Source: Edaphobacter aggregans
Lineage (GTDB): Bacteria > Acidobacteriota > Terriglobia > Terriglobales > Acidobacteriaceae
Length of the DNA: 32,000 nt
Direction of reading: 5' to 3'
Assembly: GCF_003945235.1 (NCBI RefSeq)
Contig: NZ_RSDW01000001.1
Span: 5,100,001-5,132,000 of the forward strand
The notes beneath the pieces were generated by a model, which was not told the DNA's origin, ran no database searches, and saw nothing but the letters and a program-made list of their open reading frames with translations. The position numbers were made by a program, and so were the translations under genes. This document shows, piece after piece, positions 10,963 through 31,991 of the stretch (within the stretch, counting starts at the first letter, position 1; each line of letters begins with the position of its first letter).

Positions 10963-11001
10963 GACGTAGAGTCAACAAACGCTCGCTTGACCGAGTTGTT
11001 C

Positions 11002-11070: not shown

Positions 11071-11104
11071 AAGGTACCTTTCAGATACGAAAATAGATAA
11101 ACTG

Positions 11105-11752
11105 ATGCTCGGGGATAGAACGATTTGCAGGAGCGGCGTGTTGGGCATGTGGCTAGACGGTAGTGGAGAGCGGCTCAATCAAGAGGAGTTTGAAGTTGAG
11201 GTCACTAATCAATCGGTGAGCGTCCGGCTGACTACATCGAGAAAATCTCCGCACGGAAGGTTCTATTGGGCTGCCTTCTTCGTGGCGCTCTGGATAGCGG
11301 GGCTTTGCCTGCTTGTCTTTGCCAATGGGAAGCACGGTGAACCGGGCATGTGGCATGACTTCGCGACAAACCCGCTCAACTCCTCAGGTTTCATCGCCCC
11401 CCTGCTCATACTCCTCTGCTGTTCGGCTTTATTAGTGCTCATCAGCTGGCGTTATGTCGTGATGGCGTACCCCTCGAACGAAACCTTTTACTGTGACCGG
11501 TCAACGCTGACAATCTCGAAAGTGCGCTGGCTAGACATCCACAATAAGGATTGGCGGACTCGATCCTATCCTCTCCGGCAGATCACAGGGTTGAAGTATC
11601 GATCCGTTGCTACAGCAAAGGGAGGTGCTGTCTATGGCCTTCGTTTCGAAGTAGAAGGCCGGTCAGAGCGCGTCCTTCCGGGTCTAGGAACTCATGACGC
11701 TGGCAAGATTCTGAAAGCCGTCAAATCGTTTGGAGCAAATGTAAACGAATAG
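11105..11752 (+). CDS. Hypothetical two-TM membrane protein with a C-terminal soluble domain; start uncertain
   Basis: The TM segments are FYWAAFFVALWIAGLCLLVF and FIAPLLILLCCSALLVLISW. A beta-rich domain of about 90 aa follows and ends in a helix (HDAGKILKAVKSFG). An AGGAG at about 11128-11132 could serve a GTG or ATG start slightly downstream of 11105. Confidence 0.5.
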   Translation: MLGDRTICRSGVLGMWLDGSGERLNQEEFEVEVTNQSVSVRLTTSRKSPHGRFYWAAFFVALWIAGLCLLVFANGKHGEPGMWHDFATNPLNSSGFIAPLLILLCCSALLVLISWRYVVMAYPSNETFYCDRSTLTISKVRWLDIHNKDWRTRSYPLRQITGLKYRSVATAKGGAVYGLRFEVEGRSERVLPGLGTHDAGKILKAVKSFGANVNE

Positions 11753-11780
11753 CCACAGTCTCAACCCCAAATGAGTCATT

Positions 11781-11801
11781 CCTGAAAAACGGGGTGGTCT
11801 C
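11781..11801 (+). repeat. Degenerate left module of the intergenic element
   Basis: CCTGAAAAACGGGGTGGTCTC resembles CCTGAAAACGGCGTTTTCGGC at 11002. It begins 28 nt after the stop at 11752. Confidence 0.4.
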
Positions 11802-11993
11802 AATGGGTCGACGCAACACTCAGCTCAGACCCACATTCATTGAAAACAAAAGCTAAATGCGCTGGCTAGGGCTAGATCAGCCGGAGCCTTACCCTGGCTA
11901 GGTTTGGCCACATCAGCCAAACAGATCGATTCTTCAGAGTAAGCATTTGTGGATCAGCTGATTAAATAGTGTTGCATTGACCGGTTGAGCTGG

Positions 11994-12045
11994 CAGGGGT
12001 TAGCGGAAACAACAACCGAAGTTGCCGAAAATGCGACTTTCGGGG
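11994..12045 (+). repeat. Palindromic intergenic element (degenerate left arm plus core)
   Basis: The sequence is CAGGGGTTAGCGGAAACAACAACCGAAGTTGCCGAAAATGCGACTTTCGGGG. It shares an identical 27-mer, TTGCCGAAAATGCGACTTTCGGGGAAC, with the copy near 28105. Confidence 0.7.
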
Positions 12046-12172
12046 AACAGTGACACGAAAAAAACAGCCCGAATAAACTTGCGCTCACATAACATCGGTT
12101 CTGGCTTCAGAGTCGCAAAAGCGAAGCCAGTCTTCTGTGGAAAGCGTTTCATCCATCCGGAATGAGGTCTGC

Positions 12173-15100: not shown

Positions 15101-15259
15101 CCAGATTTGGTGCAAGCGTTAGCTGTGTTCGGGAAGCCGGTAGAAGTAGTCGCCGGGAAGCCCTTCGACTTCGAGGCACCCCTCATCACCGAAAAACTTC
15201 AGGGGCTGCTGGCTCAGTTCGGTATTCCGGTACCGACCTACTCAACGTTCCTTCGCTGA
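12173..15259 (+). CDS. Large secreted protein built from repeated carboxypeptidase-regulatory-like (Ig-like beta-sandwich) domains
   Basis: The ATG at 12173 follows a GAGG RBS at 12164-12167. The signal peptide is MSSKVILARFVALAIPLVLLSVAALSSAQS. At least six DGxF...G.Y-type motifs recur: DGTFHLVDIPPGTYRL, ADGRFRFPNL, KDGLFRWKNLLSGNYRIEY, SDGNFRFDRIDPGLYTLWV, ESGRFDLKS and ERGHFSLPAL. I see no plug or barrel region. Confidence 0.8.
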   Translation: MSSKVILARFVALAIPLVLLSVAALSSAQSTPAFATVDGTVTNNGVQGAVRLEHVPLQPSVGEDGFSSKVAEDGTFHLVDIPPGTYRLLADAENQLHGVYGAADLYQSGTLIQIHPGEHLRGLAIRLLPDPPAICGQVLDAAGRPTLATVEAYGVNADFGSVTRLESPTQLTNADGRFRFPNLFNQGHFFLRANGTWYPSAVSFSGARLLEPARAATGGHCVEIRLQPDRCKGVPLAAHFVDALKFPIFEYEIALYEINPSGQLFDSQVVQINQADGVHLENVCPDRYIASMRDRWAKPQLFVSPIFTVQPPGGSVDLHESSQPDLGKIVAAELNQPPLASAELTITLEGLTTKEGCSSGVIQQASLFREGDRNAAFATADKDGLFRWKNLLSGNYRIEYGFWAHNAVNLKTFSVDGKDADPTDFYISPGRAVQVHVVLSNLPAKHPSALPLRNASSHDLPAGFHPPASLVGKVEGEHAMDSAAVLHSIRFNSARSSEYRSPVASDGNFRFDRIDPGLYTLWVESPGNPVSVYGAEGVGLEGTPLVFTAGQQIKNLKVNLFPTPGICGRVVDLEGNPRIGVQIGFQGFLSQSAQNQTERTATTDESGRFDLKSPAVPPDLELWEQERGTRTFYPWQPNYRPLSITAKSGDDSYNSRCPYTLQMASPAEGNGGGITIAGTVAGTYSPAKGEHLWAILSPVSNRLAPKPVKIDIKDMSFAFSAITPGEYILTLIDGLGNAMMSCSAVCYGETTYIRDSQKVTVTASPQSNLTLQLRPLPQVIGELTIDGKPPVPGPQTHWKDWTAWLVSSRHGQPPDSAKLDERGHFSLPALGTESHSFLFNYFWPDYAVRKITIDGNEVSPDDIRLTYGQVAHMVVDVTTVTSQGSVHSSPSNPPVDSFRDLCANFVGAPAYSALLIPDPISSPNPQFPIKQGRETGTLYTASFHGILPGHYRVLAFENLLFTNEFRRRAGQALLENPDLVQALAVFGKPVEVVAGKPFDFEAPLITEKLQGLLAQFGIPVPTYSTFLR

Positions 15260-15280
15260 TAAATTCTGCTTAGATCAAGG

Positions 15281-15329
15281 ACGGTACCGGAAACTTGAAA
15301 CGAACTTGCCGAAAACCCGACTTTGCAGG
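15281..15329 (+). repeat. Palindromic intergenic element (degenerate left arm plus core)
   Basis: The sequence is ACGGTACCGGAAACTTGAAACGAACTTGCCGAAAACCCGACTTTGCAGG. It begins 22 nt after the stop at 15259. Its core equals the 30893 copy apart from one T. Confidence 0.7.
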
Positions 15330-15418
15330 CAATTCGACCTCTACGCCTCGGAGAGCCGTATAATTCGAGCGAATCGGCGCAGTAAAACGAGATTCGAGTT
15401 AAGGAGAGAGCAAGTACG

Positions 15419-16363
15419 ATGGTCGCGATCCATAGGCTTCGAAGACTGACGTCCCTGCCAATCCTCTTGTTCTACCTTGCCGCGCCCTGCCGCGCTCAAA
15501 ATGCAGCTGCGAAGCTTCTCACTGGTAACTGGAATCTAACCCCAACCGTCGATCCTTCCCAACCCACATCGCAGCCGGTGGCAACCGAGTATGGCGGGCT
15601 ATCCCTCACCCTCGGTGTCGATGGAAATATGATCTACGGGGAAGGCCTGCTCTTAGTTAACTGTCCGAAGGACAGGAAGGGATTCGACGCTTTCTTCGGC
15701 GGACAAGTATCGCCGGACGGAACCTTCACCCTTACAAATGCCGCCGTCGCACGTGATCTCCCCGGTGGTGTGGTCGTCATCCACGGCAGACTGCCCGCCG
15801 CCGGAACGGCAGAGTGGCAAGGCCAGTTTTCCAGCATTTGGAATGGCACTAATGGAAGTTGCCTCCCGGCGGAGGGAGAAGTTGTGGCGAAGCAGTTCCC
15901 GCCCCTCAAAGGAACTTTCTCGGGAGCGATTCACGCAGACGACGGCACTGAGTCCGATGTGACGATGGAGGTGGATCAAGGAGAACTGCTTCCGACGAAT
16001 TATCCAGCAGGGGTCCCTCTGTTCTTACATTATTGCGTTCCGCTCAAGGCCACCATGTCAGTGAAGAATGCATTCGGGCCCTTATGGGGAATATTCACGA
16101 CAGGAGACAACATATATCCGAATCAATGCAGCCGGATGGCCGGAAGTTCTTTCCGACTGGAATTCACGACGACTGACGGCGCCAAACTCGATGTGTTCGG
16201 CAACATCCACAACAGTCATTTTCCCCAAATTGATCGCATGGATATCACCATTCACTATTTCCCCAAAGATTTCGCCGCACGCGGGTTGAGTCCAGTCCTT
16301 GCAACAGGACGACTCTCACAAAGTAAGCAAGACACTCGGGGTGCCCCCGCGTCATCTCCGTAA
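15419..16363 (+). CDS. Hypothetical secreted protein
   Basis: An AAGGAGAG RBS at 15401-15408 precedes the ATG. The signal peptide is RRLTSLPILLFYLAAPCRAQ. I recognise no family. Confidence 0.6.
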   Translation: MVAIHRLRRLTSLPILLFYLAAPCRAQNAAAKLLTGNWNLTPTVDPSQPTSQPVATEYGGLSLTLGVDGNMIYGEGLLLVNCPKDRKGFDAFFGGQVSPDGTFTLTNAAVARDLPGGVVVIHGRLPAAGTAEWQGQFSSIWNGTNGSCLPAEGEVVAKQFPPLKGTFSGAIHADDGTESDVTMEVDQGELLPTNYPAGVPLFLHYCVPLKATMSVKNAFGPLWGIFTTGDNIYPNQCSRMAGSSFRLEFTTTDGAKLDVFGNIHNSHFPQIDRMDITIHYFPKDFAARGLSPVLATGRLSQSKQDTRGAPASSP

Positions 16364-16552
16364 ATCGTCTCTAAGCCCTTCGCCCCCAAGAATCCGTGTC
16401 CATCTTGTCCAAACGACCCCAACCGCTTGTGGAGTCGAGCTCAACTGCCAACTCGCATTTTGCCCCAACGGGCATCCGGCTGAGAATCTTGCGCGTCATT
16501 TTGACGTTGTCAACCTGTGACGGTGGGCGATACTTAATGGTTTGATGAAGTA

Positions 16553-18172
16553 ATGGTAAAAGATCGACAGCATACGTCGGGAACCAGTTGGCATCGACCG
16601 TCCATAACGGTCATAGACAACAGCCTTCTTTTGATATTGAAATTGTACGGCGTTGTTGCGTTCGCCGCGCTTGCGCTGGTGCCGCGGCACTTCCTACCTG
16701 CCGAGGATGCAGTAATCCTGTTTCAATACAGCCGCAATCTTGCTGAGCACGGCGAAATCACATTTTTGGCAGGCGGCCCCCACGTAGAAGGAGCTACCGA
16801 TTTCGGATGGATGTTACTGAACGCATTGGCGATTCGATGTGGAATTCCGCCGTTTTGGTTTTGTGCGATAGCCAACGTCTTCTCTCTCTTGATGCTGGCT
16901 GTGCTCTTGCTTCGGCTTGCCAATAAACGGCTGTCGCTCTCGTGCATCTTTGCAATTGCAGGTTCGGCTGCCCTGTTCCCTCAAATCTTTGCTGCAGCAT
17001 CTGGCTTCGCCGTGTTACCGGATGCACTACTACTTACGACGATCGTTTTCTTTGCGATGAGACAGAAAGTTGCCCTCGCATCAATCAGTGCACTAGTGTT
17101 CTGTCTTTTTCGACCTGACGGAGTCGTGTTTGCCATTCCGCTGCTCATCTGCCTGGTACTCGAGCAGGAGGAACGAGGAAAAAGTATCTCTGTGATCAGT
17201 GCGCTATTTTTTGTGCCAGGCTTGATCTATTTTTTCTGGCGATGGCACTACTTTGGCGAAATGTTCCCCCTTCCATTTTTGGTAAAGTCAGATACAAATC
17301 GCTGGTTCGGTCTTTTTGTTGTTCACTCGATAAGAACGAGCCTTCCTTTTTTGGTTTTTGTTGCGATCGTTCTCGCACCGCTAAAGCTCGCAAGAAACGT
17401 GCAAAAGTCTTGGCTCGCGGTCGTGCTGATTGCAGTACCAACCCTGTTTTACTGGACAATGCGCCTTGATCAGAATGTCGGCTCGCGTTTTTTCTATTAT
17501 CTGCCGCTCTCAGCCGCAATCATGATTGCAGTGAATTGGGATTCCCTGCAAGCAAATCGTGTGCTTGTTTTTAGAACAGCCCTCGTTTCATGGCTGCTTC
17601 TTTTTGCCATGCCTCTGTACCGTGAGCTCCGCACCTTTCGTGACGAACAATTTCAATCGGTGAAGGAGATAGCTGAGGCCCTGAGACATATGCCGCAGCA
17701 TGGAACGCTTATCACTTCGGAAGCTGGCTTCTTACCGTATTTCTCCGGTTGGACAACATACGATGCGTGGGGCTTGAATACCCCGGAGTTTGCACATCGA
17801 TTCTTTCGCAGTTCTGATGTGAAGCGCCTCGGTGCCGACCTGATCGTACTACACCCGGATCGACCGGAGAGTTGCGTCGTCCTGCCCGATTGGGAACCTA
17901 ACTACGTCGATCGGACATGGCCTCATCTGACGCGAAACTTGGTCGAGGGTGCAGATGAGACTCAATATGAGCTCTGGCTTACATCGTACGGTTCGGAATT
18001 CTATCGTCAACGCAAGCAGTGGAACTACGGTGAGGGAGACCGCGAATGCTGGTTTGTGCGGAAGAACTCACCGCTATATGCCCAGATTACGCGAATTCTG
18101 CAAGAACATCAGGGTATCGCGCCTGCAGAGGCACTTCTGTTGGAAAAGGTCCACGGGAAGGCGAAGCGCTAA
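16553..18172 (+). CDS. Polytopic membrane protein, possible GT-C-fold glycosyltransferase
   Basis: 539 aa, with roughly 11 hydrophobic segments followed by a soluble C-terminal domain of about 170 aa. The first loop, LPAEDAVILFQYSRNLAEHGEITFLAGGPHVEGATDFGWMLL, resembles the acidic loop-1 motif of GT-C enzymes. That comparison is from memory and has not been verified. Confidence 0.65.
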   Translation: MVKDRQHTSGTSWHRPSITVIDNSLLLILKLYGVVAFAALALVPRHFLPAEDAVILFQYSRNLAEHGEITFLAGGPHVEGATDFGWMLLNALAIRCGIPPFWFCAIANVFSLLMLAVLLLRLANKRLSLSCIFAIAGSAALFPQIFAAASGFAVLPDALLLTTIVFFAMRQKVALASISALVFCLFRPDGVVFAIPLLICLVLEQEERGKSISVISALFFVPGLIYFFWRWHYFGEMFPLPFLVKSDTNRWFGLFVVHSIRTSLPFLVFVAIVLAPLKLARNVQKSWLAVVLIAVPTLFYWTMRLDQNVGSRFFYYLPLSAAIMIAVNWDSLQANRVLVFRTALVSWLLLFAMPLYRELRTFRDEQFQSVKEIAEALRHMPQHGTLITSEAGFLPYFSGWTTYDAWGLNTPEFAHRFFRSSDVKRLGADLIVLHPDRPESCVVLPDWEPNYVDRTWPHLTRNLVEGADETQYELWLTSYGSEFYRQRKQWNYGEGDRECWFVRKNSPLYAQITRILQEHQGIAPAEALLLEKVHGKAKR

Positions 18173-18364
18173 TTTCCTAATAACTAAAAGTTCAAAGTCA
18201 ATGGTTGCTTCCCCAGGCATTTCTTGTGCTCATGACTTAAAGACAACAGAGCGGTTAACTGCAAAAATCAATAAGCGGTTGCGGTTTGGGGCACACTGAA
18301 ATAAGACAACTTCCCATGTGGGGACAGAATCTTCCGCTCCTAAGAGCGAGAGCAACCTAGGTCA

Positions 18365-19930
18365 ATGAATCTTAACCGTCATTGCCTAGAGAAGAGTATC
18401 TTTAGCATGTTAACAAACGTTTGGAGACACGCAGCGGGCGTTTCAAAAACCGGTCTGGGCCTGGCCCTCGTAGCCTGCTTGGTTGTGTTCATCGTATCGA
18501 CATATCGTTGGCCTCTCATCGGTGATGCTACTTTGCTGCACTACGTCATTTTCCTAATGAAGCATGGGATGGCCCCATATCGAGACATCATTGATATGAA
18601 TATGCCGGGAACATACTTGATCCAGGAAGCGGTCGTAAATATCGCTGGCGACGGCTCTCTTTCATGGCGTTTATTCGATTTCTTCCTTCTAGCGAGTGCC
18701 ATGACGGCAATGATCGTGATAGCGCTACCTTATGGCTGGTTTGCTGGCTTCTTTGCCGGCGCATTGTTTGCCTTAATTCATGGTGTAGATGGAGTGCCAC
18801 ATTCTGGACAGCGAGATTTTGTTATGTCCGTTCTTCTGCTTAACGCATACGCAGCTCTGTTTTGTGCCACTAGACGTAATTGGGCATGGTGCGCCGGGCT
18901 CTTCGGCGTATTCATCGGAACTGCGGCAACGGTCAAACCCACGGTTGCACCATTGGGACTCCTTCTGATGGCGCTGCTCGTATACAAACGTATACGTGAA
19001 GATAAACCTGCGATTTCGTTGTTTTTATCTGGGATCGCCGGTATGGCTGTTACCGTTTTGCCGTCCGTTCTTTTCATCCAGCGCTATCATGCGTGGGTAG
19101 CATTCATGGAGGTACTAAGTCAGCTTCTTCCATATGATGCGACTCTTGGCAGAAAGCCGATAAGCTATCTCTTGCAACACTCCCTCTCCCCAATACTGCC
19201 GATTGCGATATTGTGGTTTCTTGCCGTCATAGTGGCATGGAGACGACTGGGGTGGGAAAAGGTCGCGCTGCTCATCGGGGCGGGCGTTAGCCTGGCCTCT
19301 TATATCATCCAAGGCAAGGGATATGTTTATCACCGTTATCCGTTGATAGCGATAATTTTGATCCTATCGAGCATACAGTTTTCTGAAGCCTTCAAGGAAG
19401 GCGTATTTGTGAGAGGCGTGGCTGTGGCTGGTCTTGTCTACGGTTCTTTCGTGCTTGCCCCGATTTCCGCATTTAAGATCGTGCATTATGAGTGGTGGAA
19501 GGACGACTTCCAAGCTAATCTTCGTCATGATCTTGATGCACTTGGAGGCCCCGCTCTTTCCGGCAACGTGCAGTGCATCGATATGTCAGCAGGGTGCATC
19601 AAGACCCTTGATCGTATGCGCTTGGTTCAGGCGACCGGATTCCTGTACGAGTACTATCTTCTTTCTCCGAACCAAAATCCATATGTCCTCAAAGAGCGCT
19701 CGAGTTTTATGCGGCTACTGCTACAGAATCCACCTAAGGTGCTTGTCGTCACCGATCAAGACTACCTCTTTGGTGATCACGGTTTTGAGAAGATTCGGCG
19801 CTGGCCGGCCTTTGATCGTTTTCTGATGGATCATTACTCTTTGTATAAGCTGCAACCACCTCTGCCCTTCGTGAAATGGGAACCGCGCGAGAGTCCTCAA
19901 TATGGATACGAGATCTTTGTTCTCAAATAA
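18365..19930 (+). CDS. Polytopic membrane protein, ArnT/PMT-like GT-C-fold glycosyltransferase (tentative)
   Basis: 521 aa, with roughly 11-12 hydrophobic segments followed by a C-terminal domain of about 140 aa. The first loop, RWPLIGDATLLHYVIFLMKHGMAPYRDIIDMNMPGTYL, resembles the D-x-x-x-Y...PY.D...PP loop of GT39/GT83 enzymes. An alternative start exists at the second Met, 14 codons into the ORF. Confidence 0.65.
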   Translation: MNLNRHCLEKSIFSMLTNVWRHAAGVSKTGLGLALVACLVVFIVSTYRWPLIGDATLLHYVIFLMKHGMAPYRDIIDMNMPGTYLIQEAVVNIAGDGSLSWRLFDFFLLASAMTAMIVIALPYGWFAGFFAGALFALIHGVDGVPHSGQRDFVMSVLLLNAYAALFCATRRNWAWCAGLFGVFIGTAATVKPTVAPLGLLLMALLVYKRIREDKPAISLFLSGIAGMAVTVLPSVLFIQRYHAWVAFMEVLSQLLPYDATLGRKPISYLLQHSLSPILPIAILWFLAVIVAWRRLGWEKVALLIGAGVSLASYIIQGKGYVYHRYPLIAIILILSSIQFSEAFKEGVFVRGVAVAGLVYGSFVLAPISAFKIVHYEWWKDDFQANLRHDLDALGGPALSGNVQCIDMSAGCIKTLDRMRLVQATGFLYEYYLLSPNQNPYVLKERSSFMRLLLQNPPKVLVVTDQDYLFGDHGFEKIRRWPAFDRFLMDHYSLYKLQPPLPFVKWEPRESPQYGYEIFVLK

Positions 19931-20087
19931 GATTCGAGAAAACTTCCTTCGCGGGTACAAGCCTGGACAGCAGCTTATTACGTGCAACATGGTCTAGTCT
20001 TCGAATGGTTCAGGCTGATTGCTTGAGTCACTGCTGAGTCGGCGAATGCTCCATAAAAAATATTTGAGGTAGTCGTTTAGCCACCGC

Positions 20088-20137
20088 TGTTGTTTTTCTA
20101 ATTAAGTGGCGCACTATTTGCTAATTATTTGGCACAC
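20088..20137 (+). repeat. Left terminal inverted repeat, made of two tandem ~25-bp subrepeats
   Basis: The sequence is TGTTGTTTTTCTAATTAAGTGGCGCAC followed by TATTTGCTAATTATTTGGCACAC. Both subrepeats share TTTKCTAATTA..TGGCRCAC, which I take to be reiterated transposase-binding sites. Confidence 0.8.
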
Positions 20138-20163
20138 AGAGCGCTAGCTCAGTTCAGCATCCA

Positions 20164-21135
20164 TCAAGCTTGGCCAATCACCAGATTGTCACGAGCCGTT
20201 TCGACAACATCCACCGACAAGGTCTCGAGGCCATTGATTGCAAGTACGCGTTCCATTTGGGTGAGCAAGCGAACGAGCAGGCGGAAGTTGCCACGGGTGA
20301 GTCGAATGACCGCGGCGATGACCTCCGGTGCTGGACATGAGGCAGGTAGATGTATGCCGACTGGGGCCCATCGTTGCTCGAGCAGCACCTGAATATCAGC
20401 ATCGCTAAGCGCTCTAAACTCGTGAACAAAGCCGATTCGCGAGAAGAGTTGCGGGTATCGAGCGACACGTTTCTCGATACCGGGCATGCCTATGAGGACC
20501 ATTCCGAGGCCGCTTTGATCGAAGATGGAGCGTAACTGCTCCAAACTGTTCATTGCCAGACGGTCCGCTTCATCGACGACAATTAGTGTCGTGGGGTCCT
20601 GGATCGCTTCGAGCCTGGCCTCGTATTCGTGGAGTGTGTCGTAGTAGGTTGGCTTAAGTGGCAGGGGTTGGTTGGGTCGGTAATCGGGATCCTCCCGATG
20701 CTTCACCCGCCAAGCCTCGTCGCGATTGCGAAGAACATCAAGCGTTGCTCTTTGTTCGACCCGAGTCGCTCGCTTGGCGACGCTGCAGAGAACACCACGA
20801 GCGCGATTTACGTGATGCTCAATTCGAGACGGCGTATTGACGACTTCAGGGGTGAAGAACACTGTGTCGATAGGCTTGGCGTCGGAAGCCTCTGCGTTCC
20901 AGCGGTCTAAAGGCACGATCTTCTGAATGCGACTATGGTGAATGGCAGATAGTGTTTTTCCGACGCCCGGGGGACCGTAGCACAGACCGATGTAGCGGTC
21001 TCGCCGGCACGCCTCACAAAACTCCACGAATCGTTTGTACTCAAGCGTCTCCACAAAAACTGGGACTTCGCTACTCGTTGAAGTAGCGTTTGAGCTTGGA
21101 GCGCTTGGATTCGACTGGTGTGACCATGCTTGCAT
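20164..21135 (-). CDS. tniB: TniB-like AAA+ ATPase (transposition helper)
   Basis: Walker A is GLCYGPPGVGKTLSA and Walker B is LIVVDEADRL. The motif LRSIFDQSGLGMVLIGMPGIEKRVARYPQLFSRIGF is typical of TniB/AAA_22 proteins. I set the start at the ATG at 21135, which has a GAGAGGA RBS 5 nt upstream. The track's TTG at 21183 is less likely. The gene overlaps the end of tniA by 65 nt. Confidence 0.8.
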   Translation of the reverse strand: MQAWSHQSNPSAPSSNATSTSSEVPVFVETLEYKRFVEFCEACRRDRYIGLCYGPPGVGKTLSAIHHSRIQKIVPLDRWNAEASDAKPIDTVFFTPEVVNTPSRIEHHVNRARGVLCSVAKRATRVEQRATLDVLRNRDEAWRVKHREDPDYRPNQPLPLKPTYYDTLHEYEARLEAIQDPTTLIVVDEADRLAMNSLEQLRSIFDQSGLGMVLIGMPGIEKRVARYPQLFSRIGFVHEFRALSDADIQVLLEQRWAPVGIHLPASCPAPEVIAAVIRLTRGNFRLLVRLLTQMERVLAINGLETLSVDVVETARDNLVIGQA

Positions 21136-22531
21136 GGACGTCCTCTCTTTGCATGCCTCTTCTGAATTCCAGCAAAGTGTCAACTGTCTTCAGTCGATCC
21201 CTAACGATGGTTCGCAGTTGCTCCCGGCGACGTTTGCGAGCGTTCACGATGTCTCGAAGCGGTACTGTTTGGCCGGCCAAATCGGCCGAGATGGCTCGGC
21301 ATAGGAAGCGGTCACGGTAGAAGACGCGGATCTCGCCCATGTCCCTGGGGTCAAAGCGAATCGTGACATCTTCCCCGACGTAGGCCGCCAGTGTTAACGA
21401 CAGGTAGCGGAAGTTATGAAAGTGAATGCCATCAGTTCGGACTTTGCGCGTACGGACCTCGTGGATGAGCAGGAGGTCCAGTCGTTCTATGCTGTCTGGC
21501 ATGCGCGGCAAGAAGCCACCCTGTTCCCATCGCTCTTTGGGGGACGGGTTGCCTTCTGAGCTTGGCCTCCGGTGGTAAACCTCCAGTAGGAACGTGTGGA
21601 ACTGTTTCTCGAAAGAGTCGAGCGTAAGCGTAGGCTTTCGTCCGCTCCTTGTGGTGTAGCCATCCAGGTCGCACAAAAACATCTCGTTTACCGTGCGAAA
21701 GAATCGCTCGATGCGGCCTCGACCCTGAGGCTGCCCTGGCGTGGAGAATACAAGCTGGATCTTCAGGTCCGCCGCCACCTGCTCAAGATGTTTTGAGCGG
21801 AAGTCGGAACCGTTGTCGGTGTACAGATGGTCTGGAATGCCACAGATTTCCCAATGGGGATCACCTTTACGCCAGATACCCTGACGCAGCGCCAAGGTTG
21901 TGCGAAGGGAAGAAGGCGGCTCGAATCCGAGATAATACCCCGCCACGGCTCGGCTGTAGTCATCGATGACGATGGTCAGCCAGGGCTTCCCCACGGAACC
22001 ATCGTCGCGCAGCAGCTTGATGTCGAGTTGCGCGTGATCGACCTGCCATATCGAGTTCGGCCTGAACGCTTCTCTCCGGTGAACCAGATCGAAGCCCTCG
22101 CTGTATACCCTGTTGCCTCGGTGCGCCAGCATAACCAACCCAGCTGGGAGGGTCTGTACGATTCGCCGAACAACTGCATAGCTCGGTTTGCTCTCTTTAA
22201 GAGTCTCTGCTATCGCGCTTGCCTGCCGGTGGATAGAACTCATCGGGAGTGGTGGTCGTTCAAGCGCGAGACCCTCGATCGCCTTTACCAACGTTGTCGA
22301 CGCTAGCCTTCGTCCTCCCTGATCACTCCGGCTCCGACGGGCCAAGGCAGCCAGCCCATCCTTGCGATATCCATTCGCCCAACGCAATGCTGTTCGATAG
22401 GGAATCGACGCTTCAGAAGCCACAGTACGCAGCGGACGCGCCTCTTCCAGGTGTGGCCGGAGCAGTTGGAGGCGTTGGAGGGCAATCTCACGCGACGCTT
22501 GCGGTATGGCGGAAAGCTCGTCCACACGCAA
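21071..22531 (-). CDS. tniA: TniA-like DDE (rve-type) transposase with a Mu-transposase-like C-terminal domain
   Basis: There is an N-terminal HTH region. The DDE triad contexts are SIWQVDHAQLD, LYTDNGSDFRS and GRGRIERFFRTVN. The C-terminal VRTDGIHFHNFRY...VTIRFDPRDMGEIRVFY resembles Mu_transpos_C. The start is TTG at 22531 or GTG at 22525, directly abutting the right inverted repeat. Confidence 0.85.
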   Translation of the reverse strand: MRVDELSAIPQASREIALQRLQLLRPHLEEARPLRTVASEASIPYRTALRWANGYRKDGLAALARRSRSDQGGRRLASTTLVKAIEGLALERPPLPMSSIHRQASAIAETLKESKPSYAVVRRIVQTLPAGLVMLAHRGNRVYSEGFDLVHRREAFRPNSIWQVDHAQLDIKLLRDDGSVGKPWLTIVIDDYSRAVAGYYLGFEPPSSLRTTLALRQGIWRKGDPHWEICGIPDHLYTDNGSDFRSKHLEQVAADLKIQLVFSTPGQPQGRGRIERFFRTVNEMFLCDLDGYTTRSGRKPTLTLDSFEKQFHTFLLEVYHRRPSSEGNPSPKERWEQGGFLPRMPDSIERLDLLLIHEVRTRKVRTDGIHFHNFRYLSLTLAAYVGEDVTIRFDPRDMGEIRVFYRDRFLCRAISADLAGQTVPLRDIVNARKRRREQLRTIVRDRLKTVDTLLEFRRGMQREDVHASMVTPVESKRSKLKRYFNE

Positions 22532-22533
22532 AA

Positions 22534-22583
22534 GTGTGCCAGATAATTAGCAAAATGTATGCCAAATAATTAGCAAAACGACA
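22534..22583 (-). repeat. Right terminal inverted repeat, made of two tandem subrepeats
   Basis: The top strand reads GTGTGCCAGATAATTAGCAAAAT followed by GTATGCCAAATAATTAGCAAAACGACA. Its reverse complement is TGTCGTTTTGCTAATTATTTGGCATACATTTTGCTAATTATCTGGCACAC. Confidence 0.8.
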
Positions 22584-22590
22584 GCTCATT

Positions 22591-23508
22591 TTGGCGCCTC
22601 CAGCACCCGACGGCAGGGAAGGGGAGCCCCTGGCCCTCACCCCGGCCCAGGCTTTGCTGCGCAAGATGGTGCTCGACACCGTCCCGTCGCCCCACTCCAA
22701 GCGCAACTACGGGAAAGCCCTCGACGATCTGTTCCAATTCTGTGCCAGCCGACCTCTCTCCCGGTCCTTATTAATGGAGTGGCGGGCGGGCATGGAGCCG
22801 CTCTCACCCTCCACTATAAATGTCCGGCTTTCGGCGGTGCGGAAGTTGGTGGGCGAGGCCAGGCGGAACAACATGATCGGATCGGAGGAGGCGGCCAGCC
22901 TGACCGACATCCCCAACATCCGTCAGAAGGGAACCCGGCTGGGGAACTGGCTGACCCGCGAACAGGCCAAGGAGCTGCTGGCCGTCCCCGACCGCTCGAC
23001 GCTCAAGGGCAAACGCGACTACGTCATCCTGGCGCTTCTTGTGGGCTGCGCCCTGAGACGGAACGAACTGGCCGAGCTTGACGTCGCGACCATCCAACAA
23101 AGGGAGGGGCGCTGGGTCCTGGCCGACCTGGAGGGCAAAGGCCGCCGCATCCGCACCGTTGCTGTCCCGATCTGGGTCAAGCAAGGCATCAACGCGTGGA
23201 TGACCGCGGCCGGCATCGAAGACGGACGGCTGTTGCGGTCGGTTTCGAAGAGCGGGAAGGTCAATCGCGACACCTTGAGCGACTGGGCGGTCTGGTCGGT
23301 AGTTGAACAGTCATCCAAGCAAATCGGGATCGAGCGCTTCGGCGCCCACGACCTGCGCCGTACCTGCGCCAAGCTCTGCCGGAAGAACGGCGGGGACCTG
23401 GAGCAGATCAAATTTTTGCTGGGGCACTCCTCGATTCAGACCACCGAACGCTATCTGGGCTCCGAACAGGATATTGAGATCGCGGTGAACGACAACCTAG
23501 GGCTGTAA
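22591..23508 (+). CDS. Tyrosine recombinase / phage-type site-specific integrase
   Basis: The catalytic contexts are LLVGCALRRNELAEL (Arg), GKGRRIRTVAVP (Lys), HDLRRTCAKL (His-x-x-Arg) and LLGHSSIQTTERYL (His, Tyr). The N-terminal SAM-like core-binding region is SPHSKRNYGKALDDLFQFC...STINVRLSAVRKL. The start is uncertain: the track's TTG at 22591 lies 8 nt from the transposon end, and the first ATG is at 22666. G+C is visibly higher than in both flanks. Confidence 0.85.
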   Translation: MAPPAPDGREGEPLALTPAQALLRKMVLDTVPSPHSKRNYGKALDDLFQFCASRPLSRSLLMEWRAGMEPLSPSTINVRLSAVRKLVGEARRNNMIGSEEAASLTDIPNIRQKGTRLGNWLTREQAKELLAVPDRSTLKGKRDYVILALLVGCALRRNELAELDVATIQQREGRWVLADLEGKGRRIRTVAVPIWVKQGINAWMTAAGIEDGRLLRSVSKSGKVNRDTLSDWAVWSVVEQSSKQIGIERFGAHDLRRTCAKLCRKNGGDLEQIKFLLGHSSIQTTERYLGSEQDIEIAVNDNLGL

Positions 23509-23649
23509 CATTACCTTGCTTTCTCGAAGACAGCGAAGCAGGAGCGTGTGCAGTGGGTTCCCAGCCCGTAGGCTCTTTGCAGCTTGGAGCTCGACTGTTA
23601 TAAGGTAGATAAGCTACTGTCTCAAGGATGTTTTCTCTAGAGGTTCTAC

Positions 23650-23862
23650 ATGACAGTGATGGAGCAGACGATCAAATCTTTGGTTCTCGATAAAGTTCGG
23701 CAAGCGCCACTTCGTCCAACGGAACTTGTTAGAGAACTTAGCGACGACGCATATCCGAGGGAAGTCGAGAACGCCTTATCGGGGCTTCTGGATGAAGGAA
23801 CTGTTGTCTTCGGCTCGGACCGAAGGCTCAGCGTGGCTAAGACGTTTACGGTCGCCGTGTAA
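23650..23862 (+). CDS. Small (70 aa) winged-helix-like protein
   Basis: An AGAGG RBS lies 7 nt before the ATG at 23650. LRPTELVRELSDDAYPREVENALSGLLDEGTVVFGSDRRLSV looks like helix-turn-helix followed by a wing; this is inference. The stop TAA at 23860-23862 is 1 nt before an in-frame TTG of the next gene. Confidence 0.45.
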   Translation: MTVMEQTIKSLVLDKVRQAPLRPTELVRELSDDAYPREVENALSGLLDEGTVVFGSDRRLSVAKTFTVAV

Positions 23863-23863
23863 T

Positions 23864-25252
23864 TTGCATTCCAGAACAACACTTTACCAACGTCTTCATA
23901 AAGAACCTGGTCCACACGAAGGTGATGATCGATCACCATTCGAAGAGGACCGGGATATAGTTCTGTACTCCTCAGCATTCAAACGACTACTTAGCGTCAC
24001 TCAGGTCGCTTCGGCGTCGGCTGGTTATCTGTTTCATACGCGTCTCACTCATAGCCTTCAAGTCGCTCAAGTTGGCCAGCGACTTGCAGAGAAGTTGCTG
24101 AAGAAGCAGCCTGAGCTGGCACAAGAGCTCGGAGGACTCGATGCTAGCATCGTAGAAACGGCTTGCCTGGCTCATGACATTGGTCATCCACCATTTGGGC
24201 ATTTGGCAGAAGACGCTCTTGACGAAAAAGCACGGAGTTTTGGGGGCTTTGAAGGGAATGCCCAAAGCTTTCGGATCGTTACTCAATTGGGTATTCGATC
24301 CTTAAACTATCGCGGATTGAACCTGACCGTTGGAAGTTTGCGGGGCCTTCTTAAATACCCTTGGCTATACGCTGACAGACCGTCGGACCCAAATCACGCG
24401 ACTGGCAAAAAGCCGAAATGGGGGGCCTATGACTGCGATCGAGATGCATTCGTAAATGTTTGGGGACTCGATGGCAGTGATCGAGTTGTTCGGCGCGCCC
24501 CGGAAGCAGAGCTGATGGACTGGGCCGATGATGTCACCTACTCAGTTCACGATGTAGAGGACTTTTTTCGTGCGGGCCTAATTCCGCTGCATTTGCTCAA
24601 GTCATATGGCGTATCGAAGGGCAGGGAACCAAAGAACCCTCTGCGAAGAGAACGGAAGGAGAGGGAGAGGTTCTTTGAATACATAGTTCAGAATGAGCGT
24701 AAAGACAAAATCCTGACAGGGTTATCGGTTGAAGAGATTGCAGAGATTTTCGATGATCTCTTGATCTACGCCGCCTTCGCTTTTGAACAGCCATACGAGG
24801 GTACCCGAGAGGATCACGCTCATTTAAGGACATTCACAAGTCGGCTGATCAGTCGCTTCATAAACGAATTGCAGTTGCGGGCGCCAGACGGGGATGGTGG
24901 GTCTACCGTCACGAAAGCTGTGCTGGCGCAGCAAGAGCTCGCCATACTGAAACAACTTACGTGGTTTTACGTGATCGAAGCACCGGCACTAGCAATGCAA
25001 CATCAGGCTCAAGATAAGATAATCCGAAAATTAGCGGATATTTTTCTCCAAGAGGCTCACCAAGAAAAGCCCAGCGGTGTCTTGCCTATTTACTATCGGG
25101 AGCTTTTTCGAATGCCCGATATGACCGACACAGAAAAGAGTAGAGCTGCGATTGATCTAATCGCCGGCATGACAGAAAGTCAAGCGACGGCCGTATATCA
25201 GAGAATCGAAGGGATATCCCTCAGTTCGGGTATAGACAAAATTTTAGTTTGA
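23864..25252 (+). CDS. Dgt-family HD-domain dNTP (dGTP) triphosphohydrolase-like protein
   Basis: The motifs are SPFEEDRDIVLYSSAFKRLLSVTQV, HTRLTHSLQVAQVGQRL, ACLAHDIGHPPFGH and ELMDWADDVTYSVHDVEDFFRAGLI. I placed the start at the TTG at 23864, which could be translationally coupled to the upstream ORF. The alternative ATG at 23792 would overlap that ORF by 71 nt. The track start at 23726 is unlikely. Confidence 0.85.
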   Translation: MHSRTTLYQRLHKEPGPHEGDDRSPFEEDRDIVLYSSAFKRLLSVTQVASASAGYLFHTRLTHSLQVAQVGQRLAEKLLKKQPELAQELGGLDASIVETACLAHDIGHPPFGHLAEDALDEKARSFGGFEGNAQSFRIVTQLGIRSLNYRGLNLTVGSLRGLLKYPWLYADRPSDPNHATGKKPKWGAYDCDRDAFVNVWGLDGSDRVVRRAPEAELMDWADDVTYSVHDVEDFFRAGLIPLHLLKSYGVSKGREPKNPLRRERKERERFFEYIVQNERKDKILTGLSVEEIAEIFDDLLIYAAFAFEQPYEGTREDHAHLRTFTSRLISRFINELQLRAPDGDGGSTVTKAVLAQQELAILKQLTWFYVIEAPALAMQHQAQDKIIRKLADIFLQEAHQEKPSGVLPIYYRELFRMPDMTDTEKSRAAIDLIAGMTESQATAVYQRIEGISLSSGIDKILV

Positions 25253-25265
25253 TCAATTGTAGAGA

Positions 25266-25294
25266 GGTAAGTATCTGTTAAATATAGACTTACC
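25266..25294 (+). terminator. Hairpin after the dGTPase gene (no T-tract; weak terminator candidate)
   Basis: GGTAAGT (25266-25272) pairs with ACTTACC (25288-25294), with a 15-nt loop. It lies 14 nt after the stop at 25252. Confidence 0.3.
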
Positions 25295-25408
25295 ATCACG
25301 TCAACCAACGTGCATTGGGAATGCAGGGCAATTTTCTCATTTTAAATTTGTGAATCACATTGGATCTACCTAGGATCAAAAGGAAAGAGATAATACTCCC
25401 AGGCGGTG

Positions 25409-25437
25409 TTGACATTGGTGAGAGCAGCCTCATAATG
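25409..25437 (+). promoter_or_regulatory. Sigma-70-like promoter candidate for the 67-aa / ClpP-like gene pair
   Basis: TTGACA (25409-25414), a 17-nt spacer, then ATAATG (25432-25437). It sits in an A+T-rich 280-bp gap about 95 nt upstream of the ATG at 25533, which has an AGGAG RBS at 25523-25527. Confidence 0.4.
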
Positions 25438-25532
25438 TAAACACTCGTTTGGTTAGTCTTTTGCAGAGCTTGTAAACGGTAAGGCGCGCAAACCTTCACG
25501 CTGAGATAAGCGTCCAAGAAATAGGAGTTCAT

Positions 25533-25736
25533 ATGTCAGCAGTTGCCAAAGTTCTTCGCGAGCAGTCGGATGATCTGGACACCGCGCTTGAATCTATCTC
25601 GGAACGGTGGCATGGAAATTTATCTGCTTATCTCGACGCGTTGGCTCGCGCGAAGGAAGCCGCTGAGGCTTCTCGTGAAGAACAAGGCGGCGTCCGGACG
25701 GCTGCGACGATCACTCGGGGTCTCAATAGCCGATAG
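25533..25736 (+). CDS. Small (67 aa) helical hypothetical protein
   Basis: It has a good RBS and ATG. The sequence is charged and helix-like (LREQSDDLDTALESISERWHGNLSAYLDALARAKEAAEASREEQ). The stop TAG at 25734-25736 is 2 nt before the next ATG, which suggests coupling. Confidence 0.5.
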   Translation: MSAVAKVLREQSDDLDTALESISERWHGNLSAYLDALARAKEAAEASREEQGGVRTAATITRGLNSR

Positions 25737-25738
25737 AT

Positions 25739-26935
25739 ATGGCCACGAAGATCGCAGCGTACAGAGAGAATCCTAATAGAGCGATCTTCATAACGGGTGA
25801 GATCAACCAGGCCATGGTCGATCGTCTGACCCCTCAAATTATTCAGCTGCAGAGGGCCGATAATGAGCCGATCACCGTCTATATCGACAGCCCGGGTGGT
25901 AGCACCTATCACGCGGGACTCTTGCTTCAGCTACTCAAGAACAGAGACCAAGATGGGTTGTCCGTTAGGATCATAACAGTCGTGACCGGACTTGCGGCTA
26001 GCGCGGCAGCCGATATCTTAGCGGCTGGCGACTACGCCATTGCGTATAGACACGCGATTATTCATTTCCACGGAGTTAGAACCAGCCGCGGCGATGCGAT
26101 TACACATGAGTCTGCATCCTCTTTAGCCGAAGCACTACGCCAGACTAATGAAAGCTACGCATTGGAACTTGCCCAAGAAGTTCTGGGAAGATTCATGTTC
26201 ATCTACATGCAGCTTTCAAGTGAGTTTGAGAGCGTTCGTGAGGAAAAGCATGCTGCATCAGACGTCGAGTGCCTCGCCGAATCTATAACCGCCAAACTAG
26301 GAGGCATTTCCAGCCTGTTAACTTTGGCTGTCGACAAACATAAGCAACTCTGCGATTTGTTAGAGCATTACTCTCAAGAGCTCGAAGCTCAAGTTGAAAC
26401 GTTTTCGCGGCCGGCTCTCAAAGAAGCTTTCCTTCTCAAATTTTTGATTCATTGGGAACTCGGGAGGAATCAAGAACAAGACTGGCGTTTCCGATCTGAC
26501 GGCCTAAACGCGATCAGAGAGGATTTTGTTTTGTTGGCTGATTATGAGGATGGAACTCACATGTCCAATTTGGATCAGTTAACCAAGCGCTGGGGAGTAT
26601 TTCTTTTGGATGGCGCTCAGCGGCTCGTATACGATGGCCTTCCAACCGTTGATAGACCCAACTATATTCATCAGCAAACGAAAGATCGGTTTCGACATGT
26701 CTGGCATTTCCTTGTATCGGTGTGTCGAGCGCTCCAACAGGGCGAAAATCGTCTTACTGCAACCAACGCCTATTGGTTGGGATTAATAGATGAAGTTCCC
26801 GGAACTAAGCTTGCGACGATACGGGAAATGCTTGAGAACCGGAATGACATAGTAGCTGAACCATCACCATCTTCGGGAAATCAGAAAAAACCAACGAAGG
26901 TTGCCAAGAAGAAAAGTATCAAAACTGAGCTATAA
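25739..26935 (+). CDS. ClpP-fold (S14/S49-like) serine peptidase with a large helical insertion and a lysine-rich tail
   Basis: The N-terminal AIFITGEINQAMVDRLTPQIIQLQRADNEPITVYIDSPGGSTYHAGLLL...VVTGLAASAAADILAAGDYAIAYRHAIIHFHGV follows the ClpP pattern (I.L.G.I..., YINSPGG, G.AAS, IH). Candidate catalytic Ser and His are retained. A ClpP-like C-terminal motif, LTATNAYWLGLIDEV, reappears only about 200 aa later. Confidence 0.75.
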   Translation: MATKIAAYRENPNRAIFITGEINQAMVDRLTPQIIQLQRADNEPITVYIDSPGGSTYHAGLLLQLLKNRDQDGLSVRIITVVTGLAASAAADILAAGDYAIAYRHAIIHFHGVRTSRGDAITHESASSLAEALRQTNESYALELAQEVLGRFMFIYMQLSSEFESVREEKHAASDVECLAESITAKLGGISSLLTLAVDKHKQLCDLLEHYSQELEAQVETFSRPALKEAFLLKFLIHWELGRNQEQDWRFRSDGLNAIREDFVLLADYEDGTHMSNLDQLTKRWGVFLLDGAQRLVYDGLPTVDRPNYIHQQTKDRFRHVWHFLVSVCRALQQGENRLTATNAYWLGLIDEVPGTKLATIREMLENRNDIVAEPSPSSGNQKKPTKVAKKKSIKTEL

Positions 26936-27399
26936 GAAGCGACTTACAAGCAGGAGAAACTTTCAATGCGGGTCCATCGGACGCATGACCCTCGAGTAAT
27001 CTCATCGGATGGATCTGTGAAATCAGAGAAAGCTGAACATCGACGTTTTAGAGGCTCTGCGGAGAAGTAATTCTTGCTTAGTCGTGCAGAAGCGTCACAC
27101 CGACATTTCGAACCTGAAAATGCGGTTTCCAGCAGTTATTACAGGTGGTCTCGTAAAGCTCTCGCTTCAGCTAAATTGATCTTGGCGCGACGGAGGCTTG
27201 CTGGGCATACGACAGATATCACCACAAAAACTACGACAAATAATTCCTCAAATCACAATCTTGGAGATCGGGTGCTCGGCTATCCCGATCCAGGCGCGAA
27301 GGCAGTCGCAGTCTGGTTGCGTGCAGCCACCGAAGCGCTCTTCGCACACTAAGCCCTCAAATCTGATCAGGGCAGAATTCTTCGATGGAGCGTACACTA

Positions 27400-27442
27400 G
27401 GCAGCAAACAGCTCGAAGTTGCCGATAACCCGAGTTTCAAGG
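27400..27442 (+). repeat. Palindromic intergenic element (core with degenerate left arm)
   Basis: The sequence is GGCAGCAAACAGCTCGAAGTTGCCGATAACCCGAGTTTCAAGG. Confidence 0.6.
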
Positions 27443-27575
27443 CTGTATCAACGCATCCGAAAGATACCTGACTCGTCGAGTTTCATCTGAACTAAAAGTG
27501 CATTCGCGCTTCGTTCGCCCGAATGTTTTAACGCGGACTTGAACGAGCTCTCTTCGCGTCCGCGATCTTGCGCGT

Positions 27576-27842
27576 TTAGACGTCGTTCGAATGCTGTTCA
27601 TCATCCACCAGAAACCCCCGCATCCACCGAGGAACTCCCCGGTAGTAGGTGTATTCGCCCGAAACGCGATGATTGCGAAACATCTCAACGATGGAGAAAA
27701 CAGAGGCAATGATCCCGAAAAGGATGCACGCAAAGAGCCAGGCGGTGTCCAACCATCGATAGCGAGCGCTGAGGGCAGCAGATGCGAGAAACAGCGTCCA
27801 AAAGACTATGCCGAAAATGGTCGTTCGTCTATAACGCCTCAT
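27576..27842 (-). CDS. Hypothetical small two-TM membrane protein (88 aa)
   Basis: The TM segments are TTIFGIVFWTLFLASAALSA and AWLFACILFGIIASVFSIVEMF. The composition is more protein-like than the overlapping plus-strand ORF. There is no clear RBS. Confidence 0.4.
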   Translation of the reverse strand: MRRYRRTTIFGIVFWTLFLASAALSARYRWLDTAWLFACILFGIIASVFSIVEMFRNHRVSGEYTYYRGVPRWMRGFLVDDEQHSNDV

Positions 27843-28050: not shown

Positions 28051-28133
28051 GGCGGGAAAGCAGGGTTATCGGCAACTTAGCCCGTCCGAAGCGACCTAAT
28101 CGCCCGAACTTGCCGAAAATGCGACTTTCGGGG
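28051..28133 (+). repeat. Palindromic intergenic element, long bipartite copy
   Basis: The sequence is GGCGGGAAAGCAGGGTTATCGGCAACTTAGCCCGTCCGAAGCGACCTAATCGCCCGAACTTGCCGAAAATGCGACTTTCGGG. GTTATCGGCAAC and TTGCCGAAAA form the inverted arms. Confidence 0.7.
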
Positions 28134-31751: not shown

Positions 31752-31991
31752 CTACACTTTCCGAACGAAGTGTTCTTGGAAAAGCGCTTGCGCCTTCTGG
31801 GCCCCCGACTCCGTCATTCTCACGGACTTTGCTGCGTTCTGAGGATCGGAAATGTACCCTCTCTTGTAAAGGCGATCCATAGCGTTCCAGTCATGTCCTT
31901 TCCAGGCTCGTATACCCATACCTTCCGTGAAAGTGGTCAGGTGTAGGAGCGCGAGAACCATTTCGTCAACCTTGTCTTCGTCATATTCCAT
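31752..31991 (-). CDS. Small conserved hypothetical protein (79 aa); resembles the family I recall as DUF6429
   Basis: It is a complete ORF. VDEMVLALLHLTTFTEGMGIRAWKGHDWNAMDRLYKRGYISDPQNAAKSVRMTESG matches a small-protein pattern I recall (AWKG.DW...drL...G.I.dp..kaKSV.lTe.G). The family name needs HMM confirmation. Confidence 0.5.
   Translation of the reverse strand: MEYDEDKVDEMVLALLHLTTFTEGMGIRAWKGHDWNAMDRLYKRGYISDPQNAAKSVRMTESGAQKAQALFQEHFVRKV

Follow-up and report, generated by a model that had tools for sequence, protein, structure and literature searches.

The described systems closest to the locus analyzed here are the defensive deoxyguanosine triphosphatases (dGTPases) of the Dgt family and the S14 serine protease ClpP. 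Tal et al. (10.1101/2021.04.26.441389) described Sp-dGTPase as a stand-alone, nucleotide-depleting enzyme and saw an association with defense genes among homologues at least 45% identical to it. In the two-gene system Clover (PMC12265719), the nucleotidyltransferase CloB restrains the Dgt-like CloA until infection, and a 2026 survey reported that many immune modules carry a fused dGTPase domain. In ClpP, a handle region (residues ~130 to 176) joins two heptameric rings. Here, we describe four co-oriented genes at positions 23650-26935 of a window of Edaphobacter aggregans (the whole stretch analyzed, 32,000 nucleotides [nt] of contig NZ_RSDW01000001.1). The first two genes (pair 1) encode a small winged-helix protein and a Dgt-type dGTPase, and the last two (pair 2) encode a small helical protein and a peptidase with a ClpP fold that bears an insertion. 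A previous annotation made from the letters alone (the sequence-only reading) had proposed the four genes as one candidate undescribed defense or stress system. Our comparison with related loci (80 and 84 in the two main sets) suggests that they probably represent two modules of two genes each, independent of one another and spread horizontally, which are chance neighbors in an accessory patch of the E. aggregans chromosome.

Layout and distribution of the two gene pairs

The four open reading frames (ORFs) were verified on the + strand at the coordinates first given for them. They are listed here, with lengths in amino acids (aa), together with a promoter candidate and the evidence for each feature.

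23650-23862, + strand, winged-helix protein of 70 aa, pair 1 (AlphaFold2 and Foldseek, synteny)
23864-25252, + strand, predicted Dgt-family deoxynucleoside triphosphate (dNTP) triphosphohydrolase, 462 aa from a TTG start, pair 1 (Pfam, TIGR01353, PADLOC)
25409-25436, + strand, sigma-70-like promoter candidate of pair 2 (consensus match only)
25533-25736, + strand, helical protein of 67 aa, pair 2 (profile from upstream small ORFs)
25739-26935, + strand, putative ClpP-fold serine protease with a helical insert, 398 aa, pair 2 (Pfam, profile, AlphaFold2)

The arrangement in two tightly coupled pairs was found as claimed. The TAA stop codon of the winged-helix gene (23860-23862) is followed after 1 nt by the TTG of the dGTPase gene (23864-23866), and in pair 2 the TAG at 25734-25736 is followed after 2 nt by the ATG at 25739-25741. 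Between the pairs lies a spacer of 280 nt with a G+C content of 0.411 that contains the promoter-like site. This site, previously read as TTGACA-N17-ATAATG, is the same one that we read in another register as TTGACA-16-CATAAT, with agreement at 11 of 12 positions, and it is the sole such site in 23400-27500; it is a candidate promoter only, consensus agreement being no functional evidence. The assignment of folds (a winged helix, a Dgt-type dGTPase and a ClpP fold with an insertion) was borne out by profiles and models, as detailed below, and both small ORFs are beyond chance, being conserved and syntenic across dozens of unrelated contigs.

The distribution of the two pairs was assessed from both sides. 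A tblastn search found no dGTPase, 70-aa protein or related integrase within 8 kb of any of 80 ClpP-like genome loci, drawn mainly from Acidobacteriota and Verrucomicrobiota and including one locus each under the labels Binatia, Omnitrophota and deltaproteobacterium, and no dGTPase was present in about 10 further ClpP-like loci taken from gene-context look-ups and viral contigs. Reciprocally, neither the ClpP-like gene nor its 67-aa partner gene appeared in any of 84 dGTPase loci; in the metagenome scan that contributed dGTPase matches, the best identity among the matches listed was 51%, and the set is a sample of the clade rather than a full coverage of it. The nearest ClpP-like relatives (67 to 68% identity) sit directly after rpoB-rpoC, and dGTPases at 78% identity either have IS21, recombinase and integrase genes around them or directly follow an integrase, in neither case with a ClpP-like gene. 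The pairs are thus absent from each other's loci, their nearest relatives differ in context and a spacer separates them in the window, which together argue for their independence. The sequence-only reading had itself named the failure of the pairs to co-localize elsewhere as the outcome speaking against a single system, and this is what was found in both sets of loci (0/80 and 0/84). As for the two genes that it proposed to look for beside homologues of the 398-aa protein, the 67-aa gene did accompany them (71/81 and 9/10 loci) and the dGTPase did not (0/80).

It is accordingly extremely unlikely, and already close to refuted by observation, that the four genes form one defense system in which the dGTPase would deplete nucleotides and the ClpP-like protease and the two small proteins would sense or regulate: the genes are adjacent, co-oriented, alike in G+C (0.499 and 0.494 for pairs 1 and 2) and adjoined by an integrase, but the pairs were never together in the loci above, each is kept alone down to 31 to 38% identity, an AT-rich spacer with a separate promoter-like site divides them and different genes surround the relatives at 78% and 68% identity. 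That the genes adjoin one another in this genome, close to an integrase and an insertion sequence, is here no sign of a shared system.

The G+C content of the four-gene region was indeed lower than that of the core locus, as had been noted (23650-26935, 0.489; whole window, 0.549; 1-16500, 0.567). The block 16553-19930, however, has a G+C content of 0.497, equal to that of the four-gene region, so a low value is not peculiar to these genes.

The dGTPase and its winged-helix partner

The 462-aa protein matched the Pfam domains HD (42 bits) and HD_assoc (46.7 bits), TIGR01353 at 262.4 bits, exceeding the cut-off of 152.35, and the PADLOC dGTPase profile PDLC02374 at 313.6 bits. Residues H63, H104, D105, H108, H113, D222/D223 and H229/D230 were invariant in 24 relatives. 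By these profile matches it is a predicted Dgt-family dNTP triphosphohydrolase with intact catalytic residues. The closest solved structures were Dgt-like proteins, and the solved dNTP triphosphohydrolases 9p8s-9p8v, which we take to be CloA, were distant matches (E values of 1e-21 to 1e-23). The start codon deserves attention, since the dGTPase called by NCBI has 486 aa and begins at the ATG at 23792, with a 71-nt overlap with the 70-aa ORF (23792-23862). Homologues of the dGTPase have 440 to 462 aa, and one of 462 aa at 77% identity spans 100% of the query, so the TTG is the better start. The exact 70-aa protein is missing from the protein collection, where relatives 91% identical to it are present. 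Together with the overlapping 486-aa call, this indicates that automated annotation probably hides the winged-helix partner gene in E. aggregans.

The AlphaFold2 model of the 70-aa protein had a mean predicted local distance difference test (pLDDT) value of 82.6 and the topology helix 1-strand-helix 2-helix 3-hairpin, the canonical winged-helix order. All the top Foldseek matches of this model were winged-helix domains (Fur, DtxR, Rpa2-WH with a TMq of 0.77, and Zalpha); their E values were weak (~0.03), as expected for a domain so small. The protein belongs to no family in Pfam, NCBIfam, PHROGs or PADLOC, and ten winged-helix partners compared to Pfam at E ≤ 1 gave scattered sub-threshold matches only. 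A word-index search with the 70-aa protein retrieved only five relatives, and the partner family was therefore assembled from the loci instead. By the resulting profile, 24 of the 26 loci in which the dGTPase has 38% or more identity to that of the window encode the partner immediately upstream of the enzyme, and a 25th encodes it on the enzyme's other flank, versus none of the 47 loci with a dGTPase below 38% identity. Synteny was retained at partner identities down to 31%. The winged-helix partner (60 to 75 aa and translationally coupled) thus marks a discrete dGTPase clade, one that annotation now lumps with ordinary Dgt. Some variation was seen within the family, with tandem duplicate partners upstream of the dGTPase in two loci (L101, 1766-2355; L104, 5376-5923) and, in a third (L103), a partner at 6192-6407 located on the opposite strand and at the other flank of the dGTPase gene.

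The neighbors of the clade were surveyed in 19 loci. They included resolvases, serine and tyrosine recombinases, IS21 and Type ISP/IIG restriction-modification genes, together with AbiU, PDC-S11, AIPR, a GajB-like helicase and pairs of M78 and helix-turn-helix (HTH) proteins. In one locus (L081) the relative of pair 1 lies amid IS21 and recombinases, and in another (L082) beside a Type ISP restriction-modification gene, an integrase and a resolvase. In the window, pair 1 is preceded by the following gene.

22591-23508, + strand, tyrosine recombinase, 305 aa (Pfam Phage_integrase, 82.5 bits, and Phage_int_SAM_1)

The same order and orientation recur in locus L179, where an integrase 54% identical to this one (6764-7570) directly precedes the winged-helix gene and the dGTPase. 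The base composition also contrasts in the same way: the integrase has a G+C content of 0.635 in the window and 0.64 in L179, with values of 0.77 to 0.82 at third codon positions (GC3) across both (0.82 in the window), and the genes of pair 1 have 0.50 to 0.54 in L179. The integrase proposed as a neighbor of the whole four-gene module is thus linked to pair 1, and the link does not extend to pair 2 (0/80 ClpP-like loci). In other genomes, too, the G+C content of pair 1 is below that of its flanks.

The contexts of the clade, the integrase order in L179 and the lower G+C content fit a mobile, defense-type module, and we lean, by a narrow preference, toward pair 1 being a regulated variant of dGTPase nucleotide-depletion defense. 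The enzyme would hydrolyze dGTP or other dNTPs and so starve phage DNA synthesis, in the manner described by Tal et al. The winged-helix protein would restrain the dGTPase, either as a repressor of the operon or as a direct, antitoxin-like inhibitor relieved by infection; the restraint of CloA by CloB in Clover offers a precedent for such a partner of a dNTPase. Several observations pull in the opposite direction. The 462-aa protein fails the cut-off of NF041026 (antiphage_dGTPase), with 242 versus 400 bits; in Tunturiibacter, pair 1 is flanked by housekeeping genes on one side (upstream); the neighbor survey is qualitative and without a background control; and distant homologues of Sp-dGTPase were near defense genes in only 10% of cases (Tal et al., 10.1101/2021.04.26.441389). 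The first, second and last of these would suit an ordinary housekeeping regulator of the dNTP pool that has no role in immunity and is under auto-repression through a small winged-helix transcription factor, all the more so as Dgt-family enzymes are abundant and most of the distant ones show no defense association. We consider such a regulator doubtful, given that the context varies and is often mobile even in close relatives (the window, L081, L082 and L179), that the G+C content is under that of the flanks and that AbiU, AIPR, PDC-S11 and restriction-modification genes are found nearby.

The ClpP-fold protease and its small partner

Pfam Clp_protease matched the 398-aa protein at 54.6 bits, over residues 13 to 111 only. 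When a profile of 116 homologues was compared to solved ClpP, the alignment split in two pieces, one in the core (residues 12 to 113) and the other in a C-terminal segment (342 to 367) that reads GEN-x-LTA-x-DAYWLGLIDEV in this family versus RDKILTAEDALSYGLIDQVI in ClpP. This split indicates that about 228 residues replace the ~47-residue handle region of ClpP. The AlphaFold2 model (pLDDT of 92 and predicted template modeling score of 0.88) has the core at residues 1 to 120, a helix of 47 residues at 123 to 169, a helical bundle that extends to 333, a re-entry into the core at 336 to 346 and a disordered tail. Foldseek comparison of the model to the PDB and BFVD aligned only the ~139 columns of the core, with a target-normalized template modeling score of ~0.63. 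The insert itself had no match in Pfam, the PDB or BFVD, and six insert domains and four small partners from the family, compared to Pfam at E ≤ 1, gave nothing beyond scattered sub-threshold matches. Ser88 and His111 were invariant in all 116 homologues, and position 336 was Glu in 104 and Asp in 12. A catalytic triad is still plausible because position 336 is always acidic, and these residues make it likely that the 398-aa protein is an active serine protease.

An exhaustive profile search among 1.84 billion representatives (E ≤ 1e-30) retrieved 443 clusters at 50% identity, and the length of the family is constant, at about 380 to 400 aa. The tie between the 67-aa gene and the ClpP-like gene, suspected before, held over the family, with the partner adjacent in about 80 of 91 loci. 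Counting ORFs whose end falls between 150 nt ahead of the start of the ClpP-like gene and 120 nt past it, the partner profile matched in 71 of 81 loci and in 9 of 10 further ones, and it matched nothing elsewhere in roughly a megabase of flanks of the 81 loci. The gap between partner and protease ranges from a 38-nt overlap to ~46 nt, and an overlap of 4 nt is frequent. Across the family, the partner has 60 to 100 aa and is helical; it carries the motif A-V/I-x-R-V/I-Y-x-x-Y-G-x-D-L-x-A-F-F, which in the window reads ALESISERWHGNLSAYL, and the 67-aa protein belongs to no Pfam family. All-against-all clustering of the flanking ORFs revealed no third conserved gene beside the pair.

The genomic sites of pair 2 vary by lineage. 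The pair is found after rpoBC, glmS or clpC, beside a PIN-MazE pair and in two phage-like regions, and its G+C content is under that of the flanks by 5 to 13 points in four chromosomal loci and by 2 to 5 points in the two phage-like ones. The varying insertion site, the low G+C content and its isolation in two phage-like regions mark pair 2 as an accessory, mobile pair. Recurrent positions were just downstream of glmS (L085, 7696-11218), rpoC (L175 and L176, ~9400-11200) and clpC (L087, 7200-11215). Such sites recall the attachment sites of some mobile elements, and no transposase was adjacent. The loci with clpC all belong to one lineage, in which ClpC is 94 to 95% identical, so that this adjacency is not independent evidence. 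A functional tie of pair 2 to ClpC was considered and rejected, the adjacency being the synteny of a single lineage.

The four nearest neighbors of pair 2 in 31 diverse loci were mostly metabolic or housekeeping genes. The few of defense type were a Type I specificity subunit (in one locus), SspH, a DRT-like reverse transcriptase and M78 peptidases. The check, proposed earlier, of whether loci with homologues of the 398-aa protein fall in defense islands gave no such signal across the 31 loci. Most of the ~90 loci with pair 2 are plain chromosomal DNA, and 2 of 2.9 million viral contigs had full-length matches to the 398-aa protein. On a contig of a temperate phage (L089, 3331-13878), a CI-type repressor gene precedes the pair by ~1.6 kb, SH3 and DUF3862 proteins being encoded in the interval, and beyond the pair follow a GH46-like enzyme and, 5.5 kb away, the large terminase; the placement resembles that of a moron. 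In the other phage-like region (L178), the pair sits amid HNH, methylase and small unknown genes.

The protease of pair 2 may be a cytoplasmic Ser-His-Glu enzyme in which the insert and the small partner would control access or assembly; the 67-aa protein might bind and gate it as an inhibitor, an adaptor or a first substrate. One reading, tentative and somewhat short of an even chance, is a module of cellular proteolysis unrelated to conflict, in which a specialized protease of the cytoplasm, paired with an adaptor, chaperone or substrate of its own, would act in stress or regulatory proteolysis. The mostly housekeeping neighbors and the intact catalytic triad suit it, as does the presence of clpC next to the pair in one lineage and of clpP in one locus, and PADLOC gave no match to the 398-aa protein. 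This reading accounts less well for a site that differs per lineage, for a G+C content 5 to 13 points under the flanks in the four chromosomal loci, for an isolated accessory pair in two phage-like regions and for the rarity of the family (443 clusters), and the clpC adjacency reduces to the synteny described above.

By analogy with known toxin-antitoxin pairs, pair 2 might instead act as a self-contained toxin-antitoxin-like or conflict module, a role that we regard as possible and rather doubtful, although it is, in the form of a partner-gated protease, our best conjecture. The housekeeping neighborhood and the lack of a PADLOC match both tell against it. To our knowledge, no toxin-antitoxin family has a toxin of the ClpP fold, and a literature search on ClpP-like proteases in defense or toxin-antitoxin systems found nothing relevant. 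A two-gene defense system made of an S49 protease and a hypothetical protein was considered as a parallel, but a literature search brought nothing relevant and PADLOC gave no match to the 398-aa protein. Unlikely, when taken as a whole, is the broader proposal that pair 2 would be an undescribed conflict module of toxin-antitoxin or abortive-infection type, present in Acidobacteriota, Verrucomicrobiota and some temperate phages, whose protease would be unleashed upon infection or loss of the partner, and that the winged-helix partner of pair 1 would in addition define a new regulated subtype of dGTPase immunity.

Finally, the sequence-only reading had allowed for a prophage remnant, and it is highly unlikely that pair 2 has this origin, with the 398-aa protein as a head-maturation protease of the ClpP type and the 67-aa protein as its scaffold-like partner: the weak matches to phrog_94 (E value of 8.6e-16) and NF045542 (42.5 bits), the two full-length viral-contig matches and one locus in a phage-like region speak for it, but the profile matches span the generic ClpP core only and do not surpass the matches to cellular ClpP, NF045542 is far under its cut-off of 120, the full-length matches are two in 2.9 million viral contigs, the pair in L089 is away from the head genes, most of the ~90 loci are chromosomal, no BFVD protein has the same architecture and no locus was found that puts the ClpP-like gene between or among portal and capsid genes.

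Neighboring elements and comparison with known systems

To the left of the integrase lies a mobile element that contains a TniA-like gene (rve and Mu-transpos_C) and a TniB-like gene (AAA_22), with a G+C content of 0.559.

20086-22585, - strand, self-contained TniA/TniB insertion element, 2.5 kb (inverted repeats and Pfam)

Its terminal inverted repeats of 52 nt (20086-20137 and 22534-22585, 83% complementary) are built from 23-nt sub-repeats (22530-22552 and 22553-22575) and enclose tniA and tniB only. The four genes were considered as cargo of this element and rejected on these grounds. Adjacency to the transposon, used earlier as an argument for the module, is thus weak, as the element is self-contained. 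Its right end is 5 nt ahead of the integrase start codon, so the promoter of the integrase may have been displaced by the insertion. The two ends differ in their five flanking bases (CCACC and TCATT), and there is therefore no obvious target-site duplication.

On the right side, pair 2 is followed by 1.36 kb with small ORFs only and then by a duplicated MacB/FtsX-type permease. A 23-nt inverted repeat, 87% complementary (27416-27438 and 28056-28078), flanks an ORF of 88 aa on the minus strand (27576-27842) without a Pfam match, hydrophobic by eye and probably with two transmembrane segments. The low-G+C block 16553-19930 encodes two large proteins (539 and 521 aa), also without a Pfam match, which appear hydrophobic by eye and are probably multi-pass membrane proteins. 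A very strong GC skew (0.25 to 0.40 in 1-kb windows) was seen in 1-3500 and 6500-9000, and long ORFs overlap on opposite strands, for example at 226-1026 (-) with 237-1058 (+) and at 7052-8986 (+) with 7097-8416 (-). A DUF6429 protein of 79 aa (E value of 2e-29) is located at the right edge of the window (31752-31991, - strand). Scans of the window for tRNA genes and Rfam families gave no matches.

Compared to ClpP (S14), the 398-aa protein has in common the alpha/beta core, the motifs of the oxyanion region (IDSPGG) and of the nucleophile (G-x-A-A-S) and the His, and its C-terminal LGLIDEV corresponds to YGLID in ClpP. The differences are considerable. About 228 helical residues are found where ClpP has the handle that joins its rings, the third residue of the triad is Asp in ClpP and Glu in 104 of the 116 members of this family, and all the ClpP equivalog and subfamily models score far under their cut-offs (the best, NF009205, 52 versus 228 bits; TIGR00493, 32 versus 308.6 bits). 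Furthermore, members of the family come with a small partner gene, and linkage to a Clp ATPase is not conserved among them. With the phage head-maturation proteases (NF045542 and phrog_94), the core fold is in common and the profile matches are weak, but the 398-aa gene was never in a head-gene cluster and its insert is missing from BFVD proteins. The position of the pair in L089, the NF045542 score under its cut-off and the mere two viral matches make a head-maturation role unlikely. The organization of pair 2 resembles that of type II toxin-antitoxin pairs: the larger enzyme gene is preceded by a small gene that overlaps it or is translationally coupled to it, and the unit is self-contained, below its flanks in G+C content, found at variable sites and sometimes located beside other toxin-antitoxin pairs. 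Overall, it is a compact and sharply defined family, with a ClpP core that lacks the element of the two-ring chamber and has gained a large helical domain without matches in Pfam, the PDB or BFVD, and a partner. Learning its substrate would widen the knowledge of the ClpP fold, immune-related or not.

The enzyme of pair 1 belongs to the same family as the stand-alone defensive Sp-dGTPase, by its HD and HD_assoc domains, TIGR01353 and the PADLOC score, and relatives of it are found in mobile and defense-type neighborhoods. It differs in scoring under the NF041026 cut-off and in belonging to a separate clade, which is defined by a winged-helix partner upstream, whereas the stand-alone system is a single gene. 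Such a partner is described neither in the Clover paper (PMC12265719) nor in the 2026 survey. Like pair 1, Clover is a two-gene system in which a Dgt-like dNTPase has a dedicated partner. However, that partner is a nucleotidyltransferase of the Pol-beta type, whereas in pair 1 it is a winged helix of 70 aa. None of the four proteins has a nucleotidyltransferase domain, and a nucleotide second messenger is therefore not expected in pair 1. If pair 1 is defensive, it would represent a third mode of controlling a toxic dNTPase, besides the stand-alone enzymes and the nucleotide signal of Clover.

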